From positions 2,933 to 66,932 of the forward strand of contig CAZTEO010000001.1 of the NCBI GenBank assembly GCA_964612845.1: 64,000 nt of DNA, written 5' to 3'. The position numbers and the translations under genes are program-made. The DNA comes from an uncultured Anaerolineales bacterium (lineage in GTDB: Bacteria; Chloroflexota; Anaerolineae; B4-G1; SLSP01). The notes under the pieces are model-generated. The model saw nothing but the letters and a program-made list of their open reading frames with translations, was not told the origin of the DNA and did no database searches. Shown one piece after another: positions 11,881-48,201 of this stretch. The first letter of the stretch is position 1. Every line of letters begins with the position of its first letter.

Positions 11881-12985
11881 CCCACTCTCCTCGAGGACGT
11901 CCTTGTGAGATACTCAACAACCACCCGACACCGGTCAACGTGACCAACATCTGCGAGCCGCCATAGGTGAAGAACGGCAGCGCGGTTCCGGTGAACGGGA
12001 CGAGACCAATCATGACCATCACATTCAAGATAGCCTCGGTAACAATCATCGTAGTCACCCCAAAGGCCAACAGTGAACCGAAGGGGTCCGCTGTCTCCAG
12101 AGCAATACGGTAGCCGCGATATGCAAAAAGTCCGAAAAGGGCCAGCACGGTCAACGTGCCTAATAGTCCCAATTCCTCTCCGACAACGGCAAAGATTGTG
12201 TCGGTATGCGGAAAGGGCAGATAACCGGCTTTCAAGCGCCCGTTGCCAACGCCCAACCCAAAAATCCCTCCCTCGGCAATAGCCATCACAGAACGATACC
12301 CGTGGTAAGACATATCCGCCATATCCCGCAATGTCGCCACGTAGTTGACCAACCGGTTCCGTGCATGGGGCAAGCGCCAGGCCAACAACGCAAAGGTCAC
12401 CCCGGCGATGATGACAAACAGGAATATCTGAACAGGATCACCGCCTGCAAAGAAAAACATCATCAGGGCAGTTAGGGCCAGCAGCAACGCCGTGCTGAGA
12501 TCCGGCTGCAGGGCAATGAGACTGGCCACGACGCCCGTAATCACAGCGAAGGGCACTAATCCATAGCGCACCTGTCCCAACTGTTCGCCTTTTGACGCCA
12601 GCCAAGCTGCGATATAGAGCATGGCGACGAGCCGAGCCAACACACCCGGCTGTACCGAGAGCCCAAACACCAGAAACGAACGCTGTGCTCCCAAGCGTGG
12701 TTCGCCCAAAATAAGTACGATAACTAGCAGCAACAAAGTTATCAACATCAGTGGTGTCGCCAGGCGCTGCAAGAACGTGTAAGGTACGTAAATCATAGCC
12801 ACCATGATGACAACGCCCAATGCCGCCCAGAGCAGCTGCTTGTTCCAGAACGAGGTGCCTTGCGGCACGTAGAAAGTTGCGCTGTACGTCATCAGTAGAC
12901 CGAAGGATAGCAACGCCAGCAACGTCACCACCAACAGAGAATCCACTGAGGATAACGGATGTTTTTGTGCGCCACGTCTCTTCAT
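11798..12985 (-). CDS. ftsW: SEDS peptidoglycan glycosyltransferase FtsW
   Basis: Polytopic membrane protein with the SEDS motif LPFPHTDTIFAVVGEELG. Its 3' end overlaps murG by 83 nt. Confidence 0.9.
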   Translation of the reverse strand: MKRRGAQKHPLSSVDSLLVVTLLALLSFGLLMTYSATFYVPQGTSFWNKQLLWAALGVVIMVAMIYVPYTFLQRLATPLMLITLLLLVIVLILGEPRLGAQRSFLVFGLSVQPGVLARLVAMLYIAAWLASKGEQLGQVRYGLVPFAVITGVVASLIALQPDLSTALLLALTALMMFFFAGGDPVQIFLFVIIAGVTFALLAWRLPHARNRLVNYVATLRDMADMSYHGYRSVMAIAEGGIFGLGVGNGRLKAGYLPFPHTDTIFAVVGEELGLLGTLTVLALFGLFAYRGYRIALETADPFGSLLAFGVTTMIVTEAILNVMVMIGLVPFTGTALPFFTYGGSQMLVTLTGVGWLLSISQGRPRGEWDAFLDRGWRDWWARLSGSRRRAGTTGH

Positions 12986-14385
12986 TTAACACCTTTTTCT
13001 TCAATCTGTGAGGGTTCCAACGCATGCACCAGGGCTCTAAAACGCTCGCCCCGTTCGGCAAAATCACGGAATGCATCAAAACTAGTTCCACCGGGCGAGA
13101 GCAAAACCACATCATGGGCTTGCACTCGCTGGGTCGCAGCATCAACAGCCTGAGCCAACGTATTTGCCCGGACGACTTCTTTCAGCGTGCCGATGCGCCC
13201 CACCCCGTCCCAAACTCGGCGGACGTGACCCGCAATCAGATCCATGGCTTCACCGAAGAGGATCAAGACACGCACCCGCTCCACGACACGGCGCGCGAAG
13301 GTCTCCCACGGCAAATCTTTGTCCCGCCCGCCAGCCAACAAAATCAGAGGCTCATCAAAAGCATCCAGCGCAGCCAGTACTCGCTCCGGCGCGGTCGCAA
13401 TGGAGTCGTTGACCCAGAGCGCCTGATGCCAGCACCGTACCTCTTCCAAACGGTGCTCAACGCCGGTGAAGGTCTCGATGGCGCGCCGCATGGCTGCGAC
13501 CGGCACATCCAACGTGTCGGCAAGCGCGATAGCCGCGAGCGTGTTCAGCACGTTATGGTAACCGCGCAAGCGGAGATCGTCGCGTTCACAGACGCGCTCA
13601 CAATGCCCCCCGCGACAGACAGCGAGCGTGTCATCGATAAGACAGGCTCCCTCGTCAATGTGCGCTTCGCCGCTGAAATACCGGACCTGTGCCGGCGTCT
13701 GATCCGCCAGCGCCCGCGCATTTGGTTCATCGTAGCCCAACACGGCGACATCGTCGCCGCTCTGATGCGCCACAATGTTTGCCTTCGCCTCGATGTACAC
13801 TTCCATCGTCTTGTGACGATCCAAATGGTTGGGCGTGATATTGAGCACGCCCGCCACATGCGGGCTGATATCCATCAGCTCCAGCTGGAAGCTGGAGAGC
13901 TCCATCACAACACGATCCCCCAATGCGATTCTCTCCAGATCGCCGATAAGGGGATTGCCGATGTTCCCGCCAACCCACGTCGTGTACCCAGCCTCCTCAG
14001 CCATCTTCCCCACCAGCGAGGTCGTAGTTGTCTTGCCAGCCGAGCCTGTAATCCCCAACACCGGGGGCTGACAGCGATACAGAAACTCCTGTGCATCGTT
14101 ACTCAAAGGGATGCCGCGCTGCTGCGCTTCTTTGATCAAGGGCAGATCAGCCGGCACGCCTCCACTCAGGCAGAGGAGATCAGATCCATCCAGCAGATCC
14201 AACGGATGCTCGCCCAAGACGTAGTTGATGTTCAGATCCGAGAGCTCCTCCATCTCCGACTGCAGTTCAGGCGGCAATCGCAGATCCGAGATCGTCACGT
14301 CGGCACCCTGCTCGGCGAAAAAGCGTGCCAACGCTTTCCCCTGCCGTGCCAGACCCAGAATGACAACCCTCTCAACGTCTCTCAT
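12982..14385 (-). CDS. murD: UDP-N-acetylmuramoylalanine--D-glutamate ligase
   Basis: VVILGLARQGKALARFF Rossmann N-terminus and P-loop GITGSAGKTTTTSL. ATGA overlap with ftsW. Confidence 0.93.
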   Translation of the reverse strand: MRDVERVVILGLARQGKALARFFAEQGADVTISDLRLPPELQSEMEELSDLNINYVLGEHPLDLLDGSDLLCLSGGVPADLPLIKEAQQRGIPLSNDAQEFLYRCQPPVLGITGSAGKTTTTSLVGKMAEEAGYTTWVGGNIGNPLIGDLERIALGDRVVMELSSFQLELMDISPHVAGVLNITPNHLDRHKTMEVYIEAKANIVAHQSGDDVAVLGYDEPNARALADQTPAQVRYFSGEAHIDEGACLIDDTLAVCRGGHCERVCERDDLRLRGYHNVLNTLAAIALADTLDVPVAAMRRAIETFTGVEHRLEEVRCWHQALWVNDSIATAPERVLAALDAFDEPLILLAGGRDKDLPWETFARRVVERVRVLILFGEAMDLIAGHVRRVWDGVGRIGTLKEVVRANTLAQAVDAATQRVQAHDVVLLSPGGTSFDAFRDFAERGERFRALVHALEPSQIEEKGVK

Positions 14386-19931: not shown

Positions 19932-20347
19932 AATGCCGGGTTCTCCTCCATCATCTCTACCTGCTGAGTATTCTGGGCATCCCACGCTTGGGGTTCCCAA
20001 AGCTCCATGAAACGATTCAGCCCCACGACAATCGTTTCGCTGGATGTATGTAACCCGGCATATATCCGTAGACGTTCTGGCACCAAAATACGACCCTGAC
20101 GGTCAGGGTCCACATCCACCGCATCGGCAAAGAAGATACGCCGCAAAGCACGGCCCTGAGGAGACGTGATCGGCAGAGCATTGACCTTCTGGGCGATTTC
20201 TTCCCAAATCTCCATGGGGTAGATAGCCAAACAACGGTCCAAACCGCGCGTGACGACAACGCTACCCGTCAGCTCTTCACGAAAGCGCGAAGGAATCGTC
20301 AACCGCCCCTTGCTATCTAAGGTGTAGACATAATGCCCTAAAAACAT
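19910..20347 (-). CDS. mraZ: transcriptional regulator MraZ
   Basis: Canonical MFLGHYVYTLDSKGRLTIPSRFR plus a second repeat DRQGRILVPERLR. Start set at ATG 20347; the listed ORF begins at TTG 20377. Confidence 0.92.
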   Translation of the reverse strand: MFLGHYVYTLDSKGRLTIPSRFREELTGSVVVTRGLDRCLAIYPMEIWEEIAQKVNALPITSPQGRALRRIFFADAVDVDPDRQGRILVPERLRIYAGLHTSSETIVVGLNRFMELWEPQAWDAQNTQQVEMMEENPALWENLPI

Positions 20348-20403
20348 TTTCTTTGATTTCCCCACTCCATAAGGCAAAACCCCGGCTACAAAAGGATAGA
20401 TTC

Positions 20404-20438
20404 CCCACTAAGCCCCACTATCCCCCAAAATTACCCAC
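20404..20438 (-). promoter_or_regulatory. candidate MraZ operator: four [G/T]TGGG boxes with 5-nt spacers (10-bp phasing)
   Basis: The mraZ-sense strand reads GTGGG-taatt-TTGGG-ggata-GTGGG-gctta-GTGGG, immediately downstream of the predicted -10. This is the same TGGGN/5-nt-spacer architecture described for E. coli MraZ binding. Confidence 0.6.
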
Positions 20439-20467
20439 ATTATACTCGACTTTCCCAAATAAATCAA
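20439..20467 (-). promoter_or_regulatory. sigma70-type promoter of the dcw operon (TTGATT-17-TATAAT)
   Basis: On the minus strand: -35 TTGATT (20467..20462), a 17-nt spacer, and a perfect -10 TATAAT (20444..20439). Sits in an AT-rich divergent intergenic region. Confidence 0.5.
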
Positions 20468-20583: not shown

Positions 20584-20611
20584 TTGTTCCTCAGTTCACC
20601 TCGGCTATAAT
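20584..20611 (+). promoter_or_regulatory. candidate promoter for the NurA gene (TTGTTC-16-TATAAT)
   Basis: -35 TTGTTC 20584..20589 and a perfect -10 TATAAT 20606..20611, 25 nt before the ATG. Confidence 0.35.
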
Positions 20612-20635
20612 GGAGACCTGAGAGTATGGAGGCTT

Positions 20636-21793
20636 ATGCTACATCTTGAGCAGTTGGGATCAGAGATAGCAGCCCTTGGCGAACATGCCATCAATCAACA
20701 GCGAGGGCAACAAGAGGGGTGCAAAGAAGCGCATGCGCGGCTCACATCAGCGCCACCGACCGCTGAGCTACGCGAGCTGGCGGCGCAGCATGCCGATAGA
20801 GAGGCCTGCGCGCTCCCGACAACCGACGTACCGCTTGGCCAACGCCTGGCAACGGATGCGGTTCCACAAAGGGAAACCGTGGTGATCGCCGTTGACGGCT
20901 CTCAGATTATGCCTGATCGACATGGGCCTGTGCTCTACTATCTTATCCAAGTCGGCGGGCTTATTTTCCGCTACAACGGTGCAGCCCCGACATCCCACCG
21001 CGAAGCCGAGCTATTCTTCAATGAGACGGACCTCTACGATAACGAAGGACAGATTATTGGGCGCCAGCTGGGTATGCGCCGTACTGTGGCGGAGTTGAGA
21101 TTTCTCGCCAAGCTGATGACAGAGACCAAGATGGCGGGTGCTCCTGATCCCGCACTCGCGCTGGTAGACGGCCCCCTGCTCTGGCCTTACAGTGGGCGAA
21201 GTGACGAAGAGCAGACGCTGTTACCCCTCTACATGAAGGCGCTCAATCAATTTCAAGAGACAAACGCCATGCCCGCCGGTTTCGTCGAACGTCCAGGCGG
21301 ACGCCCCCTGCTCAATTTACTGAATCTCATCCCGGCGCCAGCGATTAACGGGAAATCACTCCATGTAGCAGGCACCCGCTTGACCGACCGCATGCTGATG
21401 GAGATCTATCTGGCGCCGGGCGAACGTACCGTCTGGCTGACACGCCAGTCGCCCATGAACCAACAACATGCCCGACGCGGTCACAAGATCTGGTTCTGCT
21501 ATCTCAACGTCGGAACACCCGGCTATCCAGTCATTGCCCGGATTGAGGCGCCAGCCTGGGCCGCTTCAAACGCAAAGTGGAGCACCCAGCTGCACAATGT
21601 GCTCCTCCACCAGTCACAGATTCTACATGGATACCCCTACGTTCTCGCCAGAGCACATGAAGTAGCGCTGGTGACCCAGGAGGACAAGGTTGCCCTCGAC
21701 AATCTGCTCCAACAGCGGCTTATGCAGGCCGGACTTCCGGCCCGCCCATCGGAAAAAGCGCGGCAAAAAACGTATCTTGGACGTCGCCGGTAG
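20636..21793 (+). CDS. NurA-domain 5'-3' nuclease
   Basis: NurA-type motifs VVIAVDGSQI, ALVDGPLLWP and GYPYVLARAHEVALV. Confidence 0.75.
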   Translation: MLHLEQLGSEIAALGEHAINQQRGQQEGCKEAHARLTSAPPTAELRELAAQHADREACALPTTDVPLGQRLATDAVPQRETVVIAVDGSQIMPDRHGPVLYYLIQVGGLIFRYNGAAPTSHREAELFFNETDLYDNEGQIIGRQLGMRRTVAELRFLAKLMTETKMAGAPDPALALVDGPLLWPYSGRSDEEQTLLPLYMKALNQFQETNAMPAGFVERPGGRPLLNLLNLIPAPAINGKSLHVAGTRLTDRMLMEIYLAPGERTVWLTRQSPMNQQHARRGHKIWFCYLNVGTPGYPVIARIEAPAWAASNAKWSTQLHNVLLHQSQILHGYPYVLARAHEVALVTQEDKVALDNLLQQRLMQAGLPARPSEKARQKTYLGRRR

Positions 21794-21811
21794 CGACAAA
21801 ACGAGGAGGAA

Positions 21812-22444
21812 ATGGTGAATTCATCAGACCAGGCGATACCCATTGGCAATGTGCTTCGAGCCAATATCCAAGGTTTTGTGGTGGCCTCGCGCATCCCAGA
21901 ACCAGATGTCCCAACGTTCGGCACCTTCGTGCGCGCGCCGATCCAACAAGGGCGCGCCCAGCTTATAGGTCTGGTCTACGATATACGTCTGCAAGATGAC
22001 CCTTTTCTGCGCCATTTGGCAGCCACGGTGAGTGAAGATAACCCTCAGCACCAGGAGATTATCGCAGATCAACGAGAACGCGCGATTCCCGTCGAGATTG
22101 GTGTGGCTGCAGTTGGCTACCGCGACGAAGGAAACGTCTATCACTACGGACTGCCCCCCCAACCGCCGATGGTTCTCAAGCAGATCATCGTCTGCCGATC
22201 CAACGAGGTTATGGAAATCACAACTCAGCCCGACTGGATCCACCCGCTGTTAGAGAACCCAGAGGTACAGACAGATCCGTTGATCGCCAGGACCTTGGAA
22301 CGGTCAGCCCAGCTCTACGGGGAACCAGACTCCGACGAGCGTACAACCTACCTTCTCAAAGCCTCCCGTTACCTGGCCCGCTTTCTGGCCCGCGAGCCGT
22401 TACGCCTGGAGACCATCTTACGTCGGGTAGGACTTGAGCAGTAG
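21812..22444 (+). CDS. HerA-like HAS-barrel-only protein (no ATPase domain)
   Basis: GAGGAGG SD. IPIGNVLRANIQGFVVASRIPEPDVPTFGTFVRAPIQQGRAQLIGLVYDIRLQDD aligns by eye with the N-terminal HAS-barrel of archaeal HerA, and the second half-barrel is IPVEIGVAAVGYRDEG...PPQPPMVLKQIIVCRSNEVMEI. No Walker A/B anywhere in the 210 aa. Confidence 0.5.
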   Translation: MVNSSDQAIPIGNVLRANIQGFVVASRIPEPDVPTFGTFVRAPIQQGRAQLIGLVYDIRLQDDPFLRHLAATVSEDNPQHQEIIADQRERAIPVEIGVAAVGYRDEGNVYHYGLPPQPPMVLKQIIVCRSNEVMEITTQPDWIHPLLENPEVQTDPLIARTLERSAQLYGEPDSDERTTYLLKASRYLARFLAREPLRLETILRRVGLEQ

Positions 22445-22749: not shown

Positions 22750-23856
22750 ATGGCCGATTACAAGACATTGATCCAACAACATCGCATGCTTCGCTGGCGA
22801 TATGGTGGCCAACCTTTAGCAGTCAAACAAGAGGAAATCCGCGAGTTGGTCAACCAAGTCAACCAAGCGCGCAAAGACGTCTCCGATCCAGAACACCGCA
22901 AGACACTGGAAGAGATTGAGCGGTATTGGCGCGCCCAAATTCGCCCCTCCCGCCAGCCTATCCCCCTGTGGGGTGTGATGGTTGGCGGAGTTCTGCTCGT
23001 CATTGTCGCAGCCGTGGGCATCGCCTATATCTTGGCCCAAGGCATCGATCGGCAAGCCGCCACGCCCCCGCCGACCGCGCTGGAAGAAGAAGCAGCTGCA
23101 ACGACGGTCGCACCCGAGTTTGCGGCGACCGCTGTTCCTGCTGAAGAGACCGCGGAGACAGATACGATCCCGGCCGCCTCCCCTACCCCAACGGTAGCGC
23201 CCACTACGCCGACCGCCGAACCCACCCCCGTACCAGTTGCCACGCCGTTGACTGATGCGAACACCGATGTCGCGCCTCTGGCAGGCGGAGAAGCCATCGC
23301 AGCGCCATCCGGGGGGATCGATATCGACACGTGCAATATGGCGGCAGATGCCACAGCGCTGGCGGCACTCGCCCCACCGGCAAATCTGACGAACATCGCC
23401 GCCACCACGGACACGCTGACCATCTGGCTTTCACTGCAAACCCCGGCGCCTGTCGACCGTGCGTACACCTACCACTGGCTCGTGGCGCTGGACACGGACG
23501 GTGACACCGCCACCGGCCGTCCCCCGGGCAACGGCTACATCAATCCTGACCTGGGGCAAGACGTCGGCGCGGGCGTCTTTCTCTACGCCAACGGCACCGT
23601 CGAGCCCTACGTCTACGTCTGGAATCCCAACCTGGGCGATTGGGACGGCAACACGCCAGACATCGTCACCGCCACGGTGAACGAGACGCAAGATGCTGTC
23701 GCCTTCACCTTCCCGTTGGCCGATCTGCGCGCCAACCTGGAGCAGATCGCCGGCAGCAATCTGAATCTCCAAGCGCTCAAAGGTCGTGTGGCAACCATCG
23801 CCAGCTCACAGACACAGGCGGCCATCGTGGACTACTGCCCGGACCTCCCCCAGTAA
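22750..23856 (+). CDS. membrane-anchored hypothetical protein with a Pro/Thr/Ala-rich linker
   Basis: AAGGAG SD. About 75 aa cytoplasmic N-terminus, one TM (LWGVMVGGVLLVIVAAVGIAYIL), a low-complexity PTA linker and a C-terminal domain of about 190 aa that I do not recognise. Confidence 0.6.
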   Translation: MADYKTLIQQHRMLRWRYGGQPLAVKQEEIRELVNQVNQARKDVSDPEHRKTLEEIERYWRAQIRPSRQPIPLWGVMVGGVLLVIVAAVGIAYILAQGIDRQAATPPPTALEEEAAATTVAPEFAATAVPAEETAETDTIPAASPTPTVAPTTPTAEPTPVPVATPLTDANTDVAPLAGGEAIAAPSGGIDIDTCNMAADATALAALAPPANLTNIAATTDTLTIWLSLQTPAPVDRAYTYHWLVALDTDGDTATGRPPGNGYINPDLGQDVGAGVFLYANGTVEPYVYVWNPNLGDWDGNTPDIVTATVNETQDAVAFTFPLADLRANLEQIAGSNLNLQALKGRVATIASSQTQAAIVDYCPDLPQ

Positions 23857-42701: not shown

Positions 42702-43355
42702 TTAATCCGCCACGTCGGCCAATACCTGGAGCGCCACCGTGACGCGCCGGGGGCGATCTTCGGTCAACAATTCCAGGGACGCCCACTGCTGTGCTAATTC
42801 AGAGAGTCGGCGGCTAGAAATGCGTTCGTTGAAGACCTCGTACAGCCTATCCAGATGGAACGCGCCATCCAGATCCGTCATAGCGTAATCCACCAGCGTC
42901 TGTTCCAGCGCACTGAGTGCAGGGAACGCGGCAGGCGGTCGAATCTGTGGCGCGATGACGGACGCTCGAATCATCTCTAGCCAGAGCACAGCATCCTCAA
43001 TCAAGTACCCCATCTGGAAGTAGAGACGGTTTGACCACTCGGCCTCACCATCCAGGTCGTGGATAAAGGGGGGTGAAGTCGTCACGGTCCCATACGCGGC
43101 AAAGGGAAAATCCGCCGCATTGAAGACGCCCACATTGGGTGAGGTTGCTTCCGCCCGTAACAGATTCCAACGCTGCTCAGTGGCAGTATACTCCAGTACA
43201 AAAGTCACCAGCAGACCGCCGGGTAGCTGCCAGTACCATGCCGCGCCAATCCGCCCCTTGTAGCCGGGGGCGTGCTCCCCAATCGCATCCAAGATTTGAT
43301 CGGTCAACGCCAGCGCTTCAAACGACGGATAGAACTTCGCCATTGATCTCCTCAC
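42702..43355 (-). CDS. hypothetical protein (no family recognised)
   Basis: 217 aa with a 4-nt overlap with the upstream CCA-enzyme gene. No motifs recognised. Confidence 0.55.
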   Translation of the reverse strand: MRRSMAKFYPSFEALALTDQILDAIGEHAPGYKGRIGAAWYWQLPGGLLVTFVLEYTATEQRWNLLRAEATSPNVGVFNAADFPFAAYGTVTTSPPFIHDLDGEAEWSNRLYFQMGYLIEDAVLWLEMIRASVIAPQIRPPAAFPALSALEQTLVDYAMTDLDGAFHLDRLYEVFNERISSRRLSELAQQWASLELLTEDRPRRVTVALQVLADVAD

Positions 43356-45991
43356 CCATCTTTTTCACTTATCATCTTCAGCCGGTCATCCTTCATCTCC
43401 TGCACCCACGCCACCTCCTCCGCCCGCGTCCCGATCACGCCGTTCAAGCGCAGATCACGCAGGTGGTTGAGAATGCGGTGGAAGATCGGGCCGGGTTTCA
43501 AGCCCATAGCCTTGAGATCATCGCCATCGAGCAGCGGCTCGACGTGCCGCCATCCGGTCCAGTAGCGGTGGATTTTCTGGCGCACCGCGTCCGTCTCTAC
43601 GATAAGCCAGGACGCCGCGAGTAGCGGTGAAATCAACGGCTCCAGGAGCGCTACCACGTCCGCCGGTTGCGTCTCAGCGCGCAGTTGCTCGTAGACCTCG
43701 ACGAGGTCTGGCAACTGCAGCAGCGCGTCGATCAGTTGGCGCGACATCATCAGCCGGTCGGATACACGGCGCAACGCCTGCCGATCCAGGCCGTAGAGGA
43801 AAAGAGCCCAGTGCAGGTAGAGCAGATCCTCGTCGTCCAACTTCCAGAAATCAGCATTCAACTCGGCGCGCAGCCGCGCAAACCGGTGATGCACCGCGTC
43901 GTCATAGCGCAGCGCCGGACGAATCTTCTGGAGCGCGCCAAGTGCGTCTAGCCGCTCCAGCGCCGCCTCCGGCGCCCGCTCGCGGAAGATCTGCTCGAGC
44001 TCGTGGCGGATGCGCCCGCCGGTCACGCGATCCAGCAGCGGCAGCGCTTCCGAAATCAATGCCTCACTGCGCGGGTCGAGGTGAAAGCCCAGCCGCGCCT
44101 CGAAGCGCGCTGCCCGCAGGATGCGCGTCGGATCGTCCACAAAACTGAGGCTGTGCAGCACACGGATGACGCCTCTTTCCAAGTCCTCCTCGCCGCCGAA
44201 GAAGTCCAACATCTCACCCCAATGACCGGGGCTCAGCCAGATAGCCAGCGTATTGATGGTGAAATCGCGGCGGTGCAGATCCTGCTTGATAGAGCTCCAC
44301 TCCACCGTGGGCAGCGCAGTCGGTTTGGTGTAGAACTCGGTACGCGCTGTCACAAAGTCGATGCATTCGGGCAGCGACGCTATCTGACTCTCGGTGATCT
44401 GCGGGGCAACCTGACGCCAGACCTGGGGCGAAAGCAGCCACTTTGCGGTGCCGAAGCGGCGATGCTTGCGCATCTCCCCACCGAACACATCGATCAGCGT
44501 CTCGCACAGGGCGATGGCGTTCCCTTCTACCACCAAATCCACATCCACGATGGGCTGCCCCAGCAGCAGGTCTCGCACAATGCCGCCGACAAAATAGAGG
44601 CGGTCGGAGCGCTCCGCTGCCACCTCACCGATGCGGCGGATGAGCGTCAGCAACGGGCCGGAGAAAGCCTCTTCCATGAGCAACACAACCCGACGTCGTT
44701 CCGCCTCTTGCTCCGAGGGCGGCAGGCGGATGAGGTCGGTGCGCGTGACGACGCCGACCACGTCGCCGTCCTCAACGACGGGCACCTGTCCCCACCCGTG
44801 CTGGATCATGAGGTCCCGCACGCGCTCAGCCGAATCGGTTGGGGAGACGGCAACTTCCCCCGCCTCCATAATGCGGCTGACCGGCTGGCGCTCCCAGCCG
44901 TGCTGCAGCGCCCGGTCGACGGCATTGCGCGTCACCAGGCCGACCACGCGCCCATCCTCATCCAGCACCGGGAACCCCTCGTGCCCGGTGTGGAGCATGC
45001 GGCGAGAGACCTCTCTGATAAAGGTCTCCGGCTTGACGGTGCGCACGCTGTATGACATCAACTGGCGGACCGTAACATGGGGACGCACAAAGTCGGGCAG
45101 CAGCTCCCGGAGCTCGGCGACCACCGCCTCCACGGGGCGACCGCGCACCAGAGCAGCCGCCGCACGGTCGTGCCCACCGCCGCCAAAGTGCTCCGCCACC
45201 TCCCCTACGCTGATATCGTCTGTCGTACCACGGGCTACCAGCTGGGTGCTTTCGTCCAATTCCACCAAAACGAAGAGGGCTGAAGGCTCCAGAAGGTCTC
45301 GCAACTTATGAGCCAGCGTAGAAATCTCTTCATCCATGCCCTCCGGCGCCCGCGCCCAGGCGATGACCACGGCATGGCCCTCGTACTCCACAGTGTCCAT
45401 ATTGTCCAGAAGTTCTTCATACAGCATACGCTGCAACTCGGAAAGTGGATGATGCAGAAACTCATTGACGATTTCCAGATTGGCATCGCGCTCCAAAAGC
45501 CACGCCGCCGCGCGCATATCCCGCGCGGTCGTACTGGAATACGTCAGCCCGCCGGTGTCTTCATAGATACCCGCCAGCATCAGCGTCGCCTCGATACGCC
45601 CCACCGACATAAGGCGTGCGGACATGGTCTCTACCAGCATGGTGGTCGCCGCGCCCAGCACCTCACCGCGAAAGACCCAGTTTTCTGGCAACTGCTCGGG
45701 GCGCTTATGATGATCGATGACCAACACCTGGTCTAGCTCAGGCCCCATGCCCCGCACCGATGTGAGACTCTGCGTATCGACCAGGATCACGCGCCGGATA
45801 TGCCGCCCACGGGGCAAGGCGTCGGGATCGACAAAGGGCAGCTCCGAGCGGTAGAGGGCCAGAAACGCTCGCACGTTGCGATTGATCCGGTGCGGCAGCA
45901 CCGGCTTCGCGTTGGGGTAGAGTTTGTACGCGCCCAGCAACGCGGCAACGGCATCAAAATCTGCGTTTTCGTGCGTCAGAATGATCTGCAT
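43352..45991 (-). CDS. DHH/DHHA1 - CBS pair - tRNA nucleotidyltransferase/poly(A) polymerase fusion protein
   Basis: MQIILTHENADFDAV (DHH), GGGGHDRAAA (DHHA1), a CBS pair (VMSYSVRTV..., VSRIMEAGEVAV...) and a Pol-beta head domain (LYFVGGIVRDLLLG..DVDLVVEG). Start set at ATG 45991; TTG 46027 is the listed start. Confidence 0.8.
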   Translation of the reverse strand: MQIILTHENADFDAVAALLGAYKLYPNAKPVLPHRINRNVRAFLALYRSELPFVDPDALPRGRHIRRVILVDTQSLTSVRGMGPELDQVLVIDHHKRPEQLPENWVFRGEVLGAATTMLVETMSARLMSVGRIEATLMLAGIYEDTGGLTYSSTTARDMRAAAWLLERDANLEIVNEFLHHPLSELQRMLYEELLDNMDTVEYEGHAVVIAWARAPEGMDEEISTLAHKLRDLLEPSALFVLVELDESTQLVARGTTDDISVGEVAEHFGGGGHDRAAAALVRGRPVEAVVAELRELLPDFVRPHVTVRQLMSYSVRTVKPETFIREVSRRMLHTGHEGFPVLDEDGRVVGLVTRNAVDRALQHGWERQPVSRIMEAGEVAVSPTDSAERVRDLMIQHGWGQVPVVEDGDVVGVVTRTDLIRLPPSEQEAERRRVVLLMEEAFSGPLLTLIRRIGEVAAERSDRLYFVGGIVRDLLLGQPIVDVDLVVEGNAIALCETLIDVFGGEMRKHRRFGTAKWLLSPQVWRQVAPQITESQIASLPECIDFVTARTEFYTKPTALPTVEWSSIKQDLHRRDFTINTLAIWLSPGHWGEMLDFFGGEEDLERGVIRVLHSLSFVDDPTRILRAARFEARLGFHLDPRSEALISEALPLLDRVTGGRIRHELEQIFRERAPEAALERLDALGALQKIRPALRYDDAVHHRFARLRAELNADFWKLDDEDLLYLHWALFLYGLDRQALRRVSDRLMMSRQLIDALLQLPDLVEVYEQLRAETQPADVVALLEPLISPLLAASWLIVETDAVRQKIHRYWTGWRHVEPLLDGDDLKAMGLKPGPIFHRILNHLRDLRLNGVIGTRAEEVAWVQEMKDDRLKMISEKDG

Positions 45992-46055
45992 AGGAAATGA
46001 CAAAACACCAAATGACCAAATCGGCAAATATCAAAGATGTGACGGGTTTCACCTG

Positions 46056-46959: not shown

Positions 46960-48201
46960 ATGTGGAATCAATTGGATCTCTTCTCAGGCCCAGAACACCC
47001 TTTCTCCGTCAGTGAGGTTACGAGCCGTATCCGCAGCCTGTTGGAGCGGGAACCCAGCTTCCAGAATCTCTGGATTGAAGGCGAGGTTTCCAACTTCTCG
47101 CAAGCATCCTCGGGGCACTGCTATTTTACGCTGAAGGACAGCGCGGCGCGGATCTCGTGCGTGATCTGGCGCAGCACGGCTCGCCGACTCCGCTACCTGC
47201 CCAAATCGGGGGATCAGGTTGTGGCGCACGGCAACATTGGCTTATACGAGGCCGGCGGACAGTACCAGCTCTACGTCGACGCGGTGCAGCCCGCCGGGCG
47301 CGGCACGCTCTACCAGGAGTACGAGCGGCTGAAAGCGCAGTTGGAAGCCGAGGGCGTCTTCGACCCGGAACGCAAACGCCCGCTGCCCGCGTTCCCCCGG
47401 CGCATCGGCGTGGTCACCTCGCCGACGGCGGCGGCGCTGCGGGACGTGCTCAACGTGCTGCGCCGACGCTACCCGCTGGTCGAGGTGCTGCTCTCCCCGA
47501 CGCTGGTGCAGGGCGATGCCGCGCCTCCCCGCATCGTCGCGGCGCTGGACGCGCTCAACGCTCGCGACGACGTCGATGTCATCCTGGTCGTGCGCGGAGG
47601 TGGCTCGCTGGAAGACTTGTGGGCCTTCAACGACGAGCGCGTCGCGCGGGCAGTGGCAGCCTCCCGTATCCCCGTCGTCTCCGGCGTGGGGCACGAGACC
47701 GACTTCTCGCTGGCGGATTTCGCCGCTGATCGCCGCGCGCCGACGCCTTCGGCAGCAGCCGAGGTCGCCACCCCGGACCGCAGCGAACTACGCATGGGAA
47801 TCTCTCAAACGCGCGACCGGCTGGATCGTCTTATCGCTGCCCAACTAACTGAGCGGCGAAATCGCATCCAGCAGCTGCAGCGCAATCTGCAGCACCTCTC
47901 ACCGCGCACGCGCCTGGACAACGCACGCCAGCAGGTCGATGGGCTAACAGCGCAGCTGGATTCCGCGTTCCGCCATTGCCTCGACCGCGATACGCAGCAC
48001 GTGCAGGAGCTGACCGCGCGGCTGACCAACCTCGACCCGGAGCGGGTGCTGCAGCGCGGTTACGCCATCGTCCGCGAGCGAGGGACGGAAAAGGTGTTGA
48101 GCTCCACGAGCCAGGCACGCCCCAATCTCGCGCTTGATCTTCAGATGCACGATGGCACCATTCCGGTTCGCGTGGAGCAGGACAAACATAGCGAGCATTG
48201 A
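46960..48201 (+). CDS. xseA: exodeoxyribonuclease VII large subunit
   Basis: OB-fold N-terminus SVSEVTSRIRSLLE...LWIEGEVSNF...SGHCYFTLKD, catalytic core RIGVVTSPTAAALRD and VVRGGGSLEDLWAFN. Confidence 0.9.
   Translation: MWNQLDLFSGPEHPFSVSEVTSRIRSLLEREPSFQNLWIEGEVSNFSQASSGHCYFTLKDSAARISCVIWRSTARRLRYLPKSGDQVVAHGNIGLYEAGGQYQLYVDAVQPAGRGTLYQEYERLKAQLEAEGVFDPERKRPLPAFPRRIGVVTSPTAAALRDVLNVLRRRYPLVEVLLSPTLVQGDAAPPRIVAALDALNARDDVDVILVVRGGGSLEDLWAFNDERVARAVAASRIPVVSGVGHETDFSLADFAADRRAPTPSAAAEVATPDRSELRMGISQTRDRLDRLIAAQLTERRNRIQQLQRNLQHLSPRTRLDNARQQVDGLTAQLDSAFRHCLDRDTQHVQELTARLTNLDPERVLQRGYAIVRERGTEKVLSSTSQARPNLALDLQMHDGTIPVRVEQDKHSEH

Follow-up and report, generated by a model that had tools for sequence, protein, structure and literature searches.

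The window analysed here is a 64,000-nucleotide stretch of contig CAZTEO010000001.1 (positions 2,933 to 66,932, forward strand) from an uncultured Anaerolineales bacterium of the Chloroflexota, in which a gene for a NurA-family nuclease is closely followed by a second gene encoding a protein of 210 amino acids (aa), here called X. X is a paralogue of the N-terminal HAS-barrel of the ATPase HerA, and is additional to HerA. The features of the locus, all on the plus strand, are as follows.

20636..21793, plus strand: nurA, NurA-family nuclease of 385 aa (open reading frame and PF09376 match)
21794..21811, plus strand: nurA–X spacer of 18 nt, with a Shine-Dalgarno sequence, GAGGAGG, read from the sequence at 21803–21809
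21812..22444, plus strand: X, 210-aa stand-alone HAS-barrel protein without ATPase (open reading frame, homologue set and motif scan)
21830..22192, plus strand: X residues 7–127, predicted HAS-barrel (AlphaFold2 strands, Foldseek, PF09378, hhalign)
22193..22429, plus strand: X residues 128–206, predicted family-specific five-helix bundle (separate model and consensus of family alignment A3)
20584..20632, plus strand: putative nurA promoter and ribosome-binding site (TTGTTC at 20584–20589, 16 nt, TATAAT at 20606–20611, GGAGG at 20628–20632)

Both open reading frames lie where the original prediction had placed them, with the 210-aa frame beginning 18 nt after nurA, and the first gene is indeed a NurA: the motifs on which that assignment was based are present, and the protein matches PF09376 at 83.7 bits (cut-off 21), its residues 82–344 covering model positions 2–252 of 254. 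Residues D87 (in AVDGSQ), E153, D178 (LVDGPL) and H341 (ARAHE), which from motif position we take to be the catalytic D/E/D/H of archaeal NurA, are invariant in an alignment of 48 orthologues, and since they sit in conserved motifs the window enzyme looks catalytically intact. The gap between nurA and X has a median of 41 nt across 50 loci, and in one locus of a sister lineage (L077) the two genes overlap by 4 nt, a spacing and an overlap that fit co-transcription of the pair.

X and the N-terminal domain of HerA

An AlphaFold2 model of X built with 40 homologues (predicted local distance difference test, pLDDT, 87.3; predicted template modelling score, pTM, 0.81) places β-strands at residues 7–60 and 92–127, separated by a helical insertion at residues 64–88 that is conserved in sequence (DDPFLR...DQR), and makes residues 130–206 a helical C-terminal part. 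The two halves of a HerA HAS-barrel had been predicted in this reading frame, and the modelled strands fall at exactly the positions then named. Structural comparison by Foldseek points the same way, the best 50 matches of X in the PDB all being HerA chains (E = 2e-5 to 1.5e-3 over ~135 columns, probability 1.00), among them archaeal HerA and HerA-NurA, Deinococcus radiodurans HerA, and the HerA chains of SIR2-HerA, DUF4297-HerA and TdpAB. The HAS-barrel of HerA is itself related to the N-terminal crown of the F1-ATPase.

At the level of sequence the likeness is faint and is carried by the family. The window protein itself matches no Pfam family (PF09378 and DUF87 included, at E ≤ 1) and no NCBIfam or PADLOC model, and searches of PDB sequences with X and with two family profiles returned nothing relevant. 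Of 83 members of the X family, 30 match the HAS-barrel family PF09378 at E ≤ 1. The best of these reaches E = 1.8e-5 and 25.1 bits, just short of the 25.2-bit cut-off, and PF09378 is the only Pfam family to recur among the members. When the family alignment A3 was compared by hhalign with the HerA encoded beside X in sister lineages, X residues 4–130 were found to be co-linear with HerA residues 25–150 (157 columns, P = 0.007, at a low reported probability), with a common strand motif reading GLVYDIRL in one and GLVTDIRL in the other. A precomputed label, PF26500.1, is attached to six homologues (P0003, P0006, P0007, P0008, P0075 and P0415); a rescan with Pfam-A did not reproduce it for P0003, P0006, P0008 and P0075, and PF26500 is mentioned in no searchable paper.

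The remainder of X has no such relative. Modelled alone, the C-terminal bundle retains a pLDDT of 87.2, and a fold search of the PDB with it gave no match (best E = 3, noise). Its five helices are conserved throughout the family, as judged from the A3 consensus, and did not align to HerA. X also has a nearly invariant loop, of sequence LPPQPP. X is therefore modelled as a HAS-barrel joined to a private five-helix domain. It is not a HerA: the DUF87 match is absent and a motif scan confirmed the predicted lack of Walker A and B motifs, the same scan giving a single chance Walker-A-like string among the 83 family members.

X belongs to a sizeable family of constant build. All 166 close homologues are 200–230 aa long, an exhaustive profile search gathered 601 representatives (clusters at 50% identity), and the 150 of these that were listed are all of 296 aa or less, none being fused to a P-loop ATPase; in a second profile search the listed relatives were all of 190–230 aa, and each was named ‘hypothetical protein’. 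A length of ~205 aa and the same end point recur in 50 of 50 species loci. In all 47 species comparisons X is more conserved than NurA, as is expected of a subunit with several interfaces.

The original prediction had offered, as its first option, that X is a degenerate or split HerA with its ATPase encoded elsewhere; in the form examined here, a frameshift, a sequencing or assembly error or recent decay would have removed the ATPase part, or the next gene would encode it. Almost no credence can now be given to this reading, for which the resemblance in fold to the HerA N-terminus is the one argument. The fixed length in 50 species and in the 150 listed representatives, and a constraint stronger than that on NurA, are not those of a decaying fragment; the 305-nt spacer after X and the gene that follows contain no similarity to HerA even at E ≤ 10; and the private C-terminal domain does not align to HerA. 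More directly, X occurs together with full-length HerA proteins bearing a barrel of their own. Each of the three co-encoded HerA proteins that were scanned (L064, L065 and L066) consists of HAS-barrel, DUF87 and HerA_C, and the others are of similar full length (556–588 aa). Since X in these sister lineages adjoins a complete HerA, it is an extra paralogue and not a detached HerA N-terminus.

Gene order around nurA and X in the Chloroflexota

Among GTDB species genomes a scan found 54 loci, every one in Chloroflexota (Anaerolineae and Thermoflexales). Alignments A3, A4 and A5 proved too broad to be used for scanning loci, and the single metagenome scan, made with alignment A6, gave 8 loci. NurA lies immediately 5' of X in 55 of the 56 window-type loci whose upstream sequence can be interpreted. 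The one exception is L026, where, at the edge of the contig, X is directly preceded by the C-terminus of an ISL3-type transposase (1–334). Neighbourhoods of several kinds contain the pair, and the adjacency is far beyond chance.

Sister lineages set this pair in a larger operon. The order nurA-X-herA is found in all eight sister-clade loci with room for it (L059, L067, L068, L070, L071, L074, L075 and L077), and herA is likewise linked in L064. Two loci contain the full series of five genes, nurA-X-herA-mre11-rad50: L077 (170–7993), a compact operon whose X is 50% identical to that of the window, and L064 (5789–13316), in which HerA, with its DUF87 domain, has 571 aa. In L067 and L068, NurA, X and HerA are accompanied by a nearby Mre11, and in L067 also by Rad50, and in L065 and L066 X is followed by HerA. 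HerA and NurA are encoded with mre11 and rad50 in thermophilic archaea, and L077 and L064 are bacterial metagenome contigs bearing such an archaeal-style end-resection operon with an extra gene. The ancestral context of X is a three- to five-gene operon, nurA-X-herA(-mre11-rad50), a setting that was absent from the adaptor option of the original prediction.

Several of these loci have further features of their own. In L064 a gene of the NTPase_I-T (DUF84) type precedes nurA, its end overlapping the nurA start. L068 (7581–12383) has a gene with a PDDEXK_3 nuclease fold between X and HerA, and an 873-aa PHP-SMC_N fusion after HerA. Immediately 5' of X-HerA in L065 (4055–9354), the usual place of NurA, stands a fusion protein of 974 aa that joins an RNase T-type exonuclease to a DinG-like helicase and may be an alternative nuclease partner.

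The other genes of this larger operon were not found near the window pair. Six HerA, three Mre11 and three Rad50 sequences, used as tblastn queries, gave no herA, mre11 or rad50 in the 64 kb of the window or in 775 kb of sequence from 59 window-type loci, so that the mre11-rad50-herA-nurA linkage is absent from the window and from all 59. In a neighbour-joining tree, the window-type X proteins (51 sequences) group as a single clade that arises from among HerA-linked lineages and has L077 as its sister. The simplest history is one event, either the separation of nurA-X from herA-mre11-rad50 or the loss of the latter genes.

If the genes were lost, the Anaerolineae/Thermoflexales clade would have a nuclease free of HerA and independent of ATP, in which a ring of X takes the place of HerA's barrel crown and serves as a clamp, an activator or a passive scaffold. 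The absence of HerA, Mre11 and Rad50 from the sequence searched, set beside a HerA in every sister-clade locus, speaks for this, as does the mapping of the change to a single clade. So do the rates of divergence: identity to the window proteins within the window clade is 41–64% for NurA and 55–83% for X, whereas identity to the L067 proteins within the sister clade is 56–71% and 59–74%, respectively, a smaller lag of NurA, and the faster divergence of NurA is compatible with its having lost the HerA interface, X taking on more. On the other hand, in assays of the archaeal proteins NurA needed HerA for its activity and HerA needed NurA (PMC3326311), operon splitting is common and the search covered local sequence only, and strong conservation of X is equally expected if X still bridges to HerA. 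Taken together, HerA-free operation is a possibility to be kept in mind, and an unlikely one. A little more doubtful again is its more specific statement, that the HerA motor has been lost and the X ring alone activates and scaffolds NurA, or else that X docks NurA onto another translocase such as FtsK. Were the X ring to suffice, this would be the first ATPase-free NurA machine; docking onto FtsK would couple the degradation of DNA ends with cell division, and would accord with the conserved place of the pair at the head of the dcw cluster.

X could be a general-purpose barrel protein whose link to NurA reflects syntenic inertia, its real role lying elsewhere, for example in the envelope. The window pair abuts the dcw cluster, and in L061 and L062 X follows a lipoprotein gene with no NurA or HerA nearby. 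Yet the adjacency of nurA and X has been kept across at least four different neighbourhoods, the two genes overlap in L077, the X sequence shows neither a signal peptide nor a transmembrane segment, and the sole recognisable domain of X is that by which HerA docks NurA. Unrelated function is very improbable. The two lipoprotein-linked loci (L061, 1641–2783, and L062, 930–2116) hold the most distant X homologues, at ~23–25% identity, and the small lipoprotein has a precomputed label, PF27226 AF_1845, that a Pfam rescan did not reproduce.

At the head of the dcw cluster the pair is flanked by mraZ. The divergent arrangement named in the original prediction is real: nurA-X diverges from mraZ-rsmH in the window and in 44 related loci, and the spacer between nurA and the mraZ start codon (ATG at 20347) measures 288 bp. 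What had been described as one shared control region reads as two back-to-back promoters, and nothing was found that indicates co-regulation. The mraZ promoter is σ70-like, at 20467–20439 in the minus-strand sense (TTGATT, 17 nt, TATAAT), and directly after it come four TGGG repeats at a spacing of 10 bp (20403–20445; 20403–20467 in all). Among 45 mraZ-linked sequences (the 44 related loci and the window), at least two TGGG repeats lie 43–106 nt upstream of mraZ in 44, and three in 29. The array looks like a MraZ operator, situated on the mraZ side of the spacer. The nurA promoter is assigned by inference only: its putative −35 element, TTGTTC, matches three of six consensus positions, and was read by eye and not listed by a promoter consensus scan. 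A scan for Rfam families and terminators around the operon found nothing.

Downstream of X the window encodes a 368-aa protein (22750–23856) that belongs to no Pfam family; it has a single transmembrane segment, a linker rich in Pro, Thr and Ala, and a C-terminal domain that is conserved. Homologues follow X in the close relatives L007–L012, L014, L018 and L060, and in L005/L006, the start in L005 overlapping the X stop codon. This membrane protein, conserved only in close relatives and L005, was considered as a component of the system and rejected as probably no part of it. Further afield, the window contains an 891-aa DHH/DHHA1-CBS-polyA-polymerase-head fusion (43352–46027) and an exonuclease VII large subunit (46960–48201). 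In L001 a gene for the latter subunit lies ~3.6 kb downstream of X (12212–13674), beside a 68-aa open reading frame that might be the small subunit.

A proposed role for X with NurA and HerA

Experiments on HerA indicate what a protein built on its N-terminal domain might do. Deletion of the HAS domain from Sulfolobus solfataricus HerA abolishes NurA binding, and the NurA of this archaeon had no nuclease activity in the same assays unless HerA was present (PMC3326311). In D. radiodurans, the ring of HAS-barrels touches NurA through an acidic patch (PMC9960219), which experiments place at D78/E80/D81 of HerA. Since X is a paralogue of exactly this NurA-docking domain and is net acidic (28 D/E against 21 K/R), it is proposed, by analogy, to bind NurA. 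X would assemble via its barrel, probably into the kind of ring that other HAS-barrels form, and the barrel would bind the flat face of the NurA dimer. It would then act as an adaptor or regulator of NurA, interposed between dimeric NurA and hexameric HerA, in the 5'–3' resection of DNA double-strand breaks. An adaptor or docking ring for NurA, the second option of the original prediction, is compatible with the data.

Comparison with known systems brings out what is shared and what is not. With the HerA–NurA end-resection complex of S. solfataricus, Thermococcus kodakarensis and D. radiodurans (PDB 4d2i, 9x1m, 7wrx), the locus shares an apparently intact NurA and a HAS-barrel of the NurA-docking type, and the sister lineages of the window clade have the same operon partners, herA, mre11 and rad50. 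The published systems, in contrast, are two-component, pairing a HerA hexamer with a NurA dimer, whereas here a separate barrel-only protein with a helical domain of its own is encoded, between nurA and herA in the sister lineages and in the absence of herA, mre11 and rad50 from the locus in the window clade. Relative to the PF09378 barrel of HerA, X shows the fold, recurrent sub-threshold matches within its family and the GLV.DIRL strand motif; it differs in standing alone, and in its DDPFLR...DQR insertion, its LPPQPP loop and a C-terminal bundle without counterpart in the PDB.

In SIR2-HerA, DUF4297-HerA and TdpAB the effector docks on the HAS-barrel face of the HerA ring, and the HerA chains of these anti-phage complexes are among the best structural matches of X. 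By this analogy nurA-X could be a defence module, an angle already raised in the original prediction. Those matches concern the barrel common to all HerA proteins, however, repair HerA included, and X lacks an ATPase, a defence effector and a PADLOC match. No PADLOC model matches NurA either, no homologue of X turned up in 72,556 plasmid or 50,697 phage records, and the pair has a fixed, vertically inherited, core-genome place beside the dcw cluster in 44 loci, its ancestral partners being the repair genes mre11 and rad50. A role in defence thus finds no support and is very improbable, marginally more so than the syntenic inertia discussed above.

Some observations weigh against assigning X to NurA and HerA. 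The window protein reaches no Pfam threshold, and the pairwise profile–profile support for its kinship with HerA is weak (P = 0.007). No HerA was found within −20/+42 kb of the window pair or within ±8 kb in the 59 related loci. The tree of X was computed by neighbour-joining and has no support values. The distant relatives in L065 and L066 adjoin HerA without NurA, and those in L061 and L062 adjoin a lipoprotein gene with neither NurA nor HerA within the retrieved flanks; because of these four loci, NurA is not an obligatory neighbour across the whole family.

With these points taken into account, the best explanation of the locus as a whole, and a likely one, is that nurA and X form an operon, X being an accessory subunit of the HAS-barrel type that docks NurA or regulates it during DNA-end resection, a claim that for X draws on comparative genomics and a predicted fold. 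X is probably, then, an extra subunit of a known DNA-repair machine. As to the partners of the pair in the window genome, the nurA-X complex would still cooperate with HerA, and with Mre11-Rad50, encoded elsewhere; this is held, with somewhat less assurance, to be the most likely arrangement, and is favoured over HerA-free operation.

To our knowledge, HerA–NurA has been treated as a two-component helicase–nuclease, and all published structures and assays have been built on that footing. In full-text literature searches on NurA, HerA and the HAS-barrel, neither a barrel-only third component nor a pairing of nurA with X was found described. The system described here is a three-component form of HerA–NurA, of which two genes are present at this locus in Anaerolineae. 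That many Chloroflexota encode, between nurA and herA, a strongly conserved third protein copying exactly the NurA-docking domain suggests a level of assembly or control that has so far gone unrecognised; X may serve there as a ring-shaped adaptor, may gate the nuclease activity, or may be the element that resolves the mismatch between 2-fold and 6-fold symmetry. The Anaerolineae, in which nurA-X stands apart from herA, offer a natural experiment on whether NurA can function with a barrel ring alone, and a family of 601 clusters known as ‘hypothetical protein’ is now open to provisional annotation from its barrel and its NurA/HerA context.

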